A stretch of DNA of 64,000 bases, taken from Xylographa opegraphella. Its lineage: Eukaryota. Shown here piece after piece: positions 5,793-7,709 of this stretch (the first letter of the stretch is position 1; every line of letters starts with the position of its first letter). The position numbers were made by a program, and so were the translations under genes. The stretch spans positions 62,001 through 126,000 of the forward strand of contig JALDZX010000043.1 in the NCBI GenBank assembly GCA_022813865.1, given 5' to 3'. Below the pieces are notes generated by a model. It saw only the letters and a list, made by a program, of their open reading frames with translations. It did not search any database and was not told the DNA's origin.

Positions 5793-7709
5793 TTACAAGC
5801 CGATCGAAGTATTATAGTCCGGGTACCCGTACTGCACCGCCGAGAAATTAAATCCCGGCGGAGGAGCGCCGGGGGGGTATGTCGCACTGCCGGCGTGTCA
5901 GTATCGATCGCCCCGAGCCGACGAACGCGAATTACATACCCGTACATCGCCAGCGGCACCGTCGTCGCAGCGCCGGTCAAGTTGAGCGGATTGCGCAAGT
6001 TCCCGGCAGCGTTGCCCGAGGCCGGGAGCGGGTAGCTCTTGCAGTTGGCGAGGGCGTCATGCGGGAGGCGCATGTTGCCGAGGTGGTCGGGGGCTTCAAT
6101 CATGGTGGCCATGAGGCCGGAGTTGACGTGCCATTCGATGTGGCAGTGGAAGAGCCACACGCGTGGTACTGGTCAGCAACGGTGTAGGAAGCAGGAAGCG
6201 AGGCAGGGAGGGAGAGACATATCTGGGTTATCCGCACGGAAGCGCATCACCATGTACCCGCCGTTCTGAACCATGATTGTGTCGCGCATGATCGGCGTCC
6301 TCGAAAAGTTCCCGTACGTACCGTTGAAGTATCCGGCGTTTGGCGCCGTTCTCTCCAACACCTGGAACTTGTGGCCGTGGAGATGGAACGGATGGAGGTT
6401 GTTGTGGTAGTCGTTGACGACAATCTCCACAACCTCGTTGTGTTTGAGGACGAAGGGGTTGACCGACCCGTAAACCAGCGGGTTGGACGAATACTTGTCC
6501 CCCACACTCAGAGCAGTGTAGAGCGACGGCACTTTCTGCTGAAGGTACGTCCCACCATTGATTGTGAGCCTTGAAATGCCGTTGATCGCGCCAGCATTGA
6601 CATCCATGATGATTTGATGGTCAACCGGTTCGAGAACTGGTGTGAGATCGTATGGCACAAAGCTAACGTCGTCGACGAAATCAAACCCGTAGATTGTTGG
6701 TGGATCTGGGAGTGGCGCCGATTCATTGTAAACAAGCCATGCAGTGACGTTGGGATTGAAGTTGGCAGGAGGGTCTCGGCCCTCATCGAAGAACATCATG
6801 TTGATATCCATAGTGTCCCAGAAAGCATAGTTCCTACTCGCGTCGTTTTTCGTTGTAATCAAAACACTCATCCGCTGCCCGGTGGCAATACGAACATTCT
6901 TATTGCCGACATCGACCTTTTGCGTGTAGACGCCATCAACTTCAACAACCGTCATATTGTGATCGTCAAACAGGAACGCATGACCCGGAAAGTTGCCAAC
7001 ACAGATAATGTGGACAAGGTAAGTCTTGCCTGGCTCGACTTTGAAGATAGTGTTGGTCGCACCATTGACTAAAGCGGAATCAGGGGTTGGTTCGTCTCCT
7101 GAATTACCAGCCTCGTTCTTCGTGGATTCGTACACCGCCAACAGATCAGGTATCTGTTCATGGTACCAATCTGTCAGGGTAATAGTAAATTCTCCATCTA
7201 CCTCCTTCGCGTAAGGAAATTTCGGATCGTGAACAATGAGAGGTCCCCAAAGCCCGTCTGGATATTGACCGAGATTGTGCGAATGATACCAATAGGAGCC
7301 AACTTGGTCGATCTACAACAACGGCATTAGGTGGGTCGGATGATCGCTTTCCGAGTGGTACACTTACAACGAAATCATAGGTCAAACTGTGTCCTGGCGG
7401 GATGGGGCATTGAGTAACACCCGTCGTCCCGTCCATATAGCCAGTACCATTTTGGTACATTCCATGCCAGTGAATCCCAGTTGATTGATTTCCAAGTCCA
7501 TTGTAAACTTCGACAACGAGCCGATCACCGGTTTCGACATCGATCTGAGGGCACGGCCACTGCCCGTTGATTCCAATGACGGGTCGCGCAAACCCATCAG
7601 GCGCTGCAGTTACCCATGAGACGTCCCACTTGTAATTGACAGTTTTGGACAACGCAAGTTGCGCAAAAGCAAAAGCAAAAGCAAAAATGAGTATGAGAAC
7701 GCGAGTCAT
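5793..7709 (-). CDS. abr1: Secreted multicopper oxidase, Abr1/Fet3-like, 4 exons, about 582 aa
   Basis: Signal peptide MTRVLILIFAFAFAFAQLALS; copper motifs HWHG, WYHSH, HPFHLHGH and [12 protein letters not shown] (Leu at the axial position, as in Fet3/Abr1). Exons 7709-7368, 7312-6223, 6162-5940, 5886-5793. No C-terminal transmembrane helix evident. Confidence 0.88.

Follow-up and report, generated by a model that had tools for sequence, protein, structure and literature searches.

A probable inherited AT-AC intron at the copper-ligand junction of Abr1-type multicopper oxidase genes in filamentous ascomycetes

Does a multicopper oxidase gene of the fungus Xylographa opegraphella contain a genuine AT-AC intron immediately ahead of its copper ligands, and if so, which spliceosome would remove it and why would such ends have been kept? 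The question is raised by a 60-nt segment, 6222-6163 on the minus strand of a 64-kb window (the whole 64,000-nt stretch of contig JALDZX010000043.1 that was analysed), which interrupts an Abr1-like oxidase gene and has AT and AC where GT and AG are usual. The original prediction, made from these letters, read the segment as a rare U2-type AT-AC intron whose splicing efficiency could switch oxidase activity on or off. We find that the segment is very probably a genuine, inherited spliceosomal intron, and we infer that it is removed in Xylographa opegraphella by the major (U2-type) spliceosome. The proposed switch fares much less well.

The segment and the exactness of its excision

Read on the minus strand, the junction runs GAT (6232-6230) AAC CCA G (6223), then ATATGT (6222-6217) at the start of the segment, GCTGAC (6177-6172) and CAGTACCAC (6171-6163) towards its end, and finally GC (6162-6161) GTG TGG CTC TTC CAC TGC CAC. 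Written with slashes at the splice boundaries, this is CCAG/ATATGTCTCTCC…CGTTGCTGACCAGTACCAC/GCGTGTGG, with AT at the start of the segment and AC at its end. Excision of 6222-6163 joins a split glycine codon, G/GC, and produces the reading ...RFRADNP-G-VWLFHCHIEWH. The frame is identical on either side of the segment and is interrupted by an in-frame TGA at 6175-6173 (open reading frame (ORF) 6173..7312 abuts ORF 5765..6172), which is met ahead of the HCHIEWH copper ligands when the segment is retained. The Pfam profile Cu-oxidase_2 is divided at the same place: its positions 3-110 (of 137) lie in exon 2, ending at ...DNP, and its positions 112-136 lie in exon 3. The one profile position left between 110 and 112 fits the split glycine codon exactly.

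We enumerated every AT, GT or GC start with every AG or AC end in 6290-6120 that removed the stop and kept the frame open. Among the 71 end pairs enumerated, 6222-6163 alone gave DNPGVWLFHCH. The GT at 6218-6217 and the sole nearby AG, at 6170-6169, would remove 50 nt and shift the frame, and the single in-frame GT-AG pair, 6237-6169 (69 nt), loses RADNPG; an alignment of 54 sequences shows no variation at A360, N362 or P363 of this stretch and conservation of at least 90% at R359. Thus, the exact restoration of the motif on excision, the stop met on retention and the frame shift caused by the nearest GT/AG pair, all of which the original prediction had claimed, were reproduced from the sequence, the Pfam profile, the ORF listing and the enumeration.

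The junctions tried and rejected were GT-AG 6218-6169, GT-AG 6237-6169, AT-AG 6222-6169 and several GC-AG pairs, each of which shifts the frame or deletes or inserts residues in the invariant motif. The pattern AGATAWGT, 25-55 nt, CTRAC, 6 nt, YAC has one match in the window against 0.02 expected from shuffled sequence, a figure that is descriptive only, the pattern having been built post hoc.

The intron in relatives

A scan of metagenome contigs yielded 27 loci. Four of these (L007, L008, L009 and L027) carry an intron at the identical codon phase, of the form CCAG/ATAAGT...CTGAC...YAC/GCGT, which is 54 nt long in L007 (L007:2646-2699), L008 (L008:2646-2699) and L009 and 46 nt long in L027 (L027:1708-1753), compared with 60 nt in the window. 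L007, L008 and L009 are full-length orthologues with 59% identity, L008 and L009 being the same in the intron region. L027 (L027:1272-1983) is a decayed copy in which only residues ~15-71 and 411-552 survive (72-410 are gone) and HCH has become RCH; it still has ATAAGT...GCTGAC...TAC at the intron position but, being a gene relic, is a trace of ancestry only. The coding sequence is unbroken at the intron position in 18 of the 27 loci. Ten of these fit both flanking motifs, while the other eight (L013-L019, L025) fit on the W..HCH side only, just past the end of the query match, with a misfit to the DNP pattern. Neither motif was found in the remaining five loci.

The introns of L007 and L008 have many interior differences, yet they are identical across ATAAGTC and across the final 15 nt, ACTGACCGCATACAC, which is the pattern expected of splice signals under constraint. 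In all five AT-AC sequences (four of them distinct), the last intron base lies 10 nt beyond the branch A and the 3' end is YAC/, whereas the spacing is 14 and 11 nt in the ordinary introns 1 and 3 of the window gene. Without an AG to recognise, the choice of 3' end may depend on this fixed 10-nt spacing. The remaining introns of L007 and L008 are placed differently from those of the window gene: intron 1 of the window gene is missing from both L007:1138-2930 and L008:1138-2930, and each carries a different one near model residue 362. Thus, it is specifically the AT-AC intron that is conserved; intron positions in the oxidase gene appear to turn over while the AT-AC intron persists.

Protein models extend this comparison to a wider range of fungi. 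We classified 220 proteins at the junction (120 listed of 688 matches, plus 100 longer proteins from a further search): 157 have an uninterrupted DNPG-x-W, 53 read through into the intron, and 10 jump the junction with the loss of DNP(G) or of the entire HCH region. The 53 read-throughs begin DNP-D-K (44), D-M (7), D-E (1) or D-N (1), and the K, M and E forms imply G/AY-AAG, G/AY-ATG and G/AY-GAR, respectively. A GT donor at this phase would produce read-throughs of the form G-K, G-M or G-E; none was seen among the 220 proteins, with P0108 ambiguous. That protein (…NPGIFALFLF, with the end ...RFRATNPGIFALFLF) may reflect a GT-type donor (G/GTATT...), and so a GT-AG version of the intron, or an unrelated frameshift. 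Three read-throughs (P0021, P0077 and P0181) are in frame and stop-free, and all three have Leu-Arg before VW, as …YTA C/GN predicts. The public model of Xylographa vitiligo, P0001, reads MRF/PPRVWLFHCH, a forced GT-AG solution. P0003, an ORF-type prediction that appears by eye to come from the same X. vitiligo gene, reads DNPDMSLLLFF…, which implies an ATATG start like that of the window intron.

Across the abr1 relatives, the intron thus has AT-AC ends wherever its DNA was read (L007, L008, L009 and L027), and no GT-type counterpart was found among the proteins except, possibly, P0108. The same ends recur at the same codon phase in many independent assemblies, both in orthologous loci and in read-through models, and so do not reflect a base-calling error or sequencing artefact. 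The original prediction, which had considered two independent errors unlikely, was right on this point.

The Aspergillus fumigatus abr1 (brown 1) models illustrate how the intron can be hidden. The models of four sister strains (P0094, P0170, P0172 and P0173) read through the junction as NNPDKLPSALGEMHTDLSYEFGSSTAISNG and RFRANNPDKLPSALGEMHTDLSYEFGSSTAISNG… (D-K-L-P...), whereas a comparison of the proteins shows the Af293 model, P0171, to be joined across the same segment. The sister-strain reading back-translates to G/AT AAG ... TAY/GA GTT TGG CTC ATC CAC TGC, with the stretch EFGSSTAISNG frame-shifted. Set side by side, the two readings imply that the Af293 reference model itself needs an intron of the form A-Y...A-Y and, on our reading of the frames, it would already remove a 47-nt intron that starts with A-Y and ends with A-Y. 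The gene is like the window oxidase in family (54% identity) and in the codon phase of the intron; it differs in being known here from proteins alone, with its ends given as A-Y...A-Y. An uninterrupted eukaryote model is thus no proof of an intron-free genome.

Models that read through or are distorted at this junction occur in Aspergillus (fumigatus, thermomutatus, hiratsukae, felis, clavatus, ruber, chevalieri, pseudoustus, ambiguus and others), in other Eurotiomycetes (Penicillium macrosclerotiorum, Monascus and Paecilomyces), in four subclasses or orders of Lecanoromycetes (Xylographa, Pleopsidium, Hypocenomyce and Ikaeria) and in one of the Leotiomycetes (a Claussenomyces metagenome-assembled genome). 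We built a FastTree tree of 202 rows on the columns up to the DNP motif, leaving out 18 proteins missed by the pattern and one insect protein. The read-through state is scattered over the Abr1-like part of the tree and is found nowhere in the Fet3-like outgroup, with a minimum of 13 state changes, a count in which the tree cannot tell gain from loss. One old origin of the AT-AC intron followed by many losses is suggested, it being far less likely that AT-AC ends arose several times independently at one codon phase. The intron therefore appears to be an old feature of the Abr1 family, shared from Aspergillus to the lichen-forming Lecanoromycetes, rather than a peculiarity of Xylographa opegraphella.

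Two proteins in the set are of doubtful source. P0181, attributed to Ophiocordyceps sinensis, nests among Aspergillus sequences in the tree, and P0169, attributed to Emarellia grisea, is nearly identical to A. fumigatus Abr1; contamination of the assemblies or gene transfer should be considered for both ahead of any use in dating.

The junction also affects the quality of public annotation. In total, it leaves 63 of the 220 predicted proteins truncated or frame-shifted, or without conserved residues or copper ligands; gene callers limited to GT-AG or GC-AG cut the protein short or distort it at this point. Counted from source names, 31 of the 63 are named NCBI models, several A. fumigatus strain annotations among them. 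Such models affect any comparative or structural study of Abr1 built on them, and annotation pipelines for Pezizomycotina should permit AT-AC at this site.

Splice signals and competing explanations

Apart from its first and last base, the segment would pass for an ordinary short fungal intron, with a CAG exon end, a pyrimidine-rich body and CTGAC. The 5' sites, CAG/ATAAGT in the orthologues and CAG/ATATGT in the window, agree with the U2-type consensus except at +1 (compared without a position-weight score), and the window's ATATGT is the counterpart of the GTATGT donor in intron 3 of the same gene. CTGAC, the usual fungal branch site, is present in all five AT-AC sequences, and the intron bodies in the window and orthologues have a pyrimidine content of 0.62-0.82. 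In place of the U12 5' site ATATCCTT, the window has ATATGTCT and the orthologues have ATAAGTCC, ATAAGTCT and ATAAGTTC, and near the 3' end TTGCTGAC, GTACTGAC, AAACTGAC and ATGCTGAC stand where a branch box like TCCTTAAC was sought. The U2-like donor and GCTGAC branch site of the original prediction thus recur in the orthologues. The intron has the attributes of the U2-type (type II) AT-AC class, namely AT and AC ends, a U2-type 5' site except at +1, and a U2-type branch site without U12 boxes. Sheth et al. 2006 define AT-AC II introns by a U2-type 5' site apart from +1 (PMC1557818; this source, PMC5029451 and PMC2846911 are cited from excerpts).

That class was already known. Its natural examples are very rare, numbering 24 among ~610,000 introns of five animal and plant genomes (PMC1557818), and the metazoan ones have a strong /ATAAGT consensus (PMC5029451). 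Those in the animal genes SCN4A, SCN5A and TAF2 resemble the Abr1 intron in their AT-AC ends and otherwise perfect U2-type 5' site (/ATAAGT), in having neither a U12 5' box nor a U12 branch box, and in being kept between distant orthologues (PMC1557818). The Abr1 intron differs in its host, a filamentous ascomycete, in its length of 46-60 nt, in its fungal CTGAC placed 10 nt from the 3' end and in that its use of the major spliceosome is presumed. The same compensating terminal pair is found in AT-AC introns engineered in yeast and human pre-mRNA (Parker and Siliciano 1993 and others, cited through PMC5029451 and PMC1557818), and one such intron splices in yeast (PMC5029451), but these are laboratory double mutants, whereas the Abr1 intron is natural and evolutionarily fixed. 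The nested AT-AC intron of Saccharomyces cerevisiae RPL30 (Gould et al. 2016, PMC5029451) likewise occurs in an ascomycete without a minor spliceosome. It gives a minor isoform of ~1-2% and its 5' site is unlike the U2-type AT-AC consensus (PMC5029451), whereas the Abr1 5' site fits that consensus and splicing there is the sole predicted route to a functional protein.

In filamentous fungi, AT-AC introns have so far been hypothesised, as AT-AC II introns of xylanase genes (PMC1557818), or met as stray RNA-seq junctions, with rare examples in Fusarium graminearum (Sanger-confirmed) and in Trichoderma RNA-seq. Our search of the accessible literature, judged in part by title or abstract, found no description of an abr1 or multicopper oxidase intron as AT-AC, although the A. 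fumigatus reference model already implies one. The Abr1 intron would be a case fixed at one site within a well-studied gene family. As such, it offers a natural test of the rule by which the major spliceosome pairs the two terminal bases of an intron, and of how a splice-site pair with two mutations comes to persist or to be lost.

Published work also suggests how such an intron could be removed and retained. During the second catalytic step the two terminal bases of the intron are in contact, and a G-to-A change of the first is tolerated once the last has become C instead of G; in yeast and human the rescue is less efficient than the original pair (PMC1557818). Reverting one end alone should block splicing, so that the pair, once fixed, would tend to remain. 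Splicing would join G6223 to GC (6162-6161), making the glycine of DNPGVWLFHCH and attaching the exon with the type-1 and type-3 copper ligands to the rest of the oxidase. On this reading the intron is an inherited one that occupies a single codon phase in Abr1-type oxidase genes of the Eurotiomycetes, of several lecanoromycete orders and of a Leotiomycete, with losses in many lineages.

Four considerations weigh against our reading of the segment as a U2-type AT-AC intron. The support for splicing, though good, comes from sequence comparison. Both ends were read directly only in the window and four loci, which amount to three distinct sequences, one of them the relic L027. Read-through in proteins is blind to AT versus AC at the 5' end, because Asp is encoded by both GAT and GAC, and to TAC versus TAT at the 3' end. 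Finally, the first four bases of the window 5' site, ATATGT, are also those of the U12 consensus ATATCC, so the assignment to U2 depends on the branch site and on the orthologues.

A more elaborate explanation is that the AT-AC pair has been kept as a regulatory gate, as the original prediction proposed: splicing would be slow or conditional, and retention of the intron with its premature stop would switch the oxidase with development or pigmentation. Introns with an A...C pair are spliced with lower efficiency than those with G...G (PMC1557818), retention meets an in-frame stop in the window, L007, L008, L009 and L027, and the intron has persisted across distant lineages. If the pair were selected for its inefficiency, the copper-ligand exon would come under splicing control, for example being joined only in conidiating or melanising cells, and the survival of the intron in Eurotiomycetes, Lecanoromycetes and Leotiomycetes while neighbouring intron positions changed would be explained. 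We regard such a gate as unlikely, and selection for inefficiency as similarly improbable. The introns of at least three relatives, P0021, P0077 and P0181, are in frame and stop-free, which means that evolution has not conserved a premature stop upon retention, and in the window the stop is simply contained in the branch-site CTGAC. With 157 of the 220 proteins uninterrupted, and Penicillium and Talaromyces models reading straight through, the many outright losses of the intron would be odd for a needed switch. The need for two simultaneous mutations in any reversion explains its persistence equally well, and truncation ahead of the Cys and His ligands would follow from almost any intron placed there. 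Thus, the comparison gave no support to splicing efficiency as an on/off switch.

It is less probable still that the segment is not spliced as AT-AC at all, the gene being a pseudogene, the ends assembly errors, or the true junction another one (GT6237-AG6169 or AT6222-AG6169). GT-AG 6237-6169 is in frame and stop-free, an equivalent junction is used in the public annotation of P0001, and an AG is present at 6170-6169. However, that GT-AG junction deletes RADNPG with its three invariant residues and would require the donor GTGCGG, and the AG at 6170-6169 lies just 3-4 nt past the branch A, while L007 and L008 have no AG following their branch sites. The remainder of the gene is intact with all its copper ligands present, AT...AC ends recur in independent assemblies, and the DNPDMS read-through recurs in P0003. 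Together these observations make this explanation very unlikely, and favour the inherited AT-AC intron.

Removal by the minor spliceosome, as a U12-type intron, is barely credible: the terminal dinucleotides are alike and the window intron begins ATAT like ATATCCTT (consensus per PMC5029451), but its +5/+6 bases are GT rather than CC, the orthologues begin ATAAGT, the ATATCC 5' box and the TCCTTAAC branch box are missing, the branch site being CTGAC in a pyrimidine-rich body, ATATCCTT occurs nowhere in the 64-kb window, and U12 introns and small nuclear RNAs (snRNAs) are reported missing in Ascomycota (PMC2846911). The statement in the original prediction that the host group lacks the U12 spliceosome stands on that literature alone, and for Ascomycota; the 64-kb window had no match in an Rfam scan, a result that is uninformative on minor-spliceosome snRNAs.

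Gene model, family and neighbourhood

The model used for the window oxidase (Table 1) has three Pfam cupredoxin domains, Cu-oxidase_3, Cu-oxidase and Cu-oxidase_2 (PF07732, PF00394 and PF07731), and all four copper motifs are present in the spliced product: HWHG (80), HSH (124), HLHGH (424) and HCHIEWH (483). It aligns with its relatives end to end, with 92% identity to X. vitiligo P0001 over 582 aligned positions, 63% to Talaromyces rugulosus P0010 and 54% to A. fumigatus Af293 Abr1 (P0171). The best protein match to exon 2 alone is from X. vitiligo (Lecanoromycetes, Baeomycetales), at 96% identity, which by itself makes a lichen-forming fungus close to that species the most likely source of the window. 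Identity to proteins named Abr1 by their source is 62-65%, and to Fet3-like proteins 37-46%. In the FastTree tree, where the Fet3-like rows serve as outgroup, the window oxidase falls within the Abr1-like part. By these measures it groups as an Abr1-type (Fet3-related) oxidase, nearer to named Abr1 proteins than to Fet3-type ferroxidases.

Table 1. Features of the oxidase gene, its AT-AC intron and the neighbouring genes in the 64-kb window
Feature	Position	Strand	Details
Abr1-like multicopper oxidase gene	5793..7709	-	ATG 7709-7707, TAA 5795-5793; four exons, 582-aa product in the model used
Exon 1	7368..7709	-	114 codons; signal peptide and first cupredoxin domain (Cu-oxidase_3, E 1.4e-28)
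Intron 1	7313..7367	-	Ordinary GT-AG, GTAAGT...CTAAT...TAG, 55 nt
Exon 2	6223..7312	-	363 codons plus G6223, first base of the split Gly codon
Intron 2	6163..6222	-	Putative AT-AC, 60 nt, phase 1
5' splice site CAG/ATATGT	6217..6225	-	U2-type consensus apart from A at +1
Branch site CTGAC	6172..6176	-	Presumed branch A 6173, 10 nt before the last intron base; holds TGA 6175-6173
3' splice site CAC/	6163..6165	-	Stands where YAG/ is usual
Exon 3	5940..6162	-	Remaining Gly codon bases, VWLFHCHIEWH...; type-1 and type-3 copper ligands
Intron 3	5887..5939	-	Ordinary GT-AG, GTATGT...ACTGAC...CAG, 53 nt
Exon 4	5793..5886	-	TAA stop included; C-terminus ...YPDYNTSIGL agrees with P0001
Short-chain dehydrogenase/reductase	3395-4714	+	Oxidase neighbour; ~180-aa low-complexity N-terminal extension in the open frame
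Second multicopper oxidase, laccase-like	8943-10034	-	Oxidase neighbour on the other side
Zn2Cys6 factor	3-665	-	Same window

The laccase-like oxidase next to the Abr1-type gene has no intron at the homologous NPG/..HCH position. No polyketide synthase was found within the 64-kb window. The reductase, the two oxidases and the Zn2Cys6 factor may be part of a pigment cluster.

Two repetitive tracts were also seen near the oxidase. Its signal-peptide coding region contains a GCTTTT hexamer repeat (7660-7692, minus strand) that is translated as ...IFAFAFAFAQ; the repeat looks recently expanded, because the N-terminus of the 96%-identical X. vitiligo protein differs (MSRLVVLVVALAQ). The spacer between the reductase and the oxidase (4830-5020) holds di- and hexanucleotide microsatellite tracts, which appear as LTLTLT... 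and SHSHSH... in the ORF listings.

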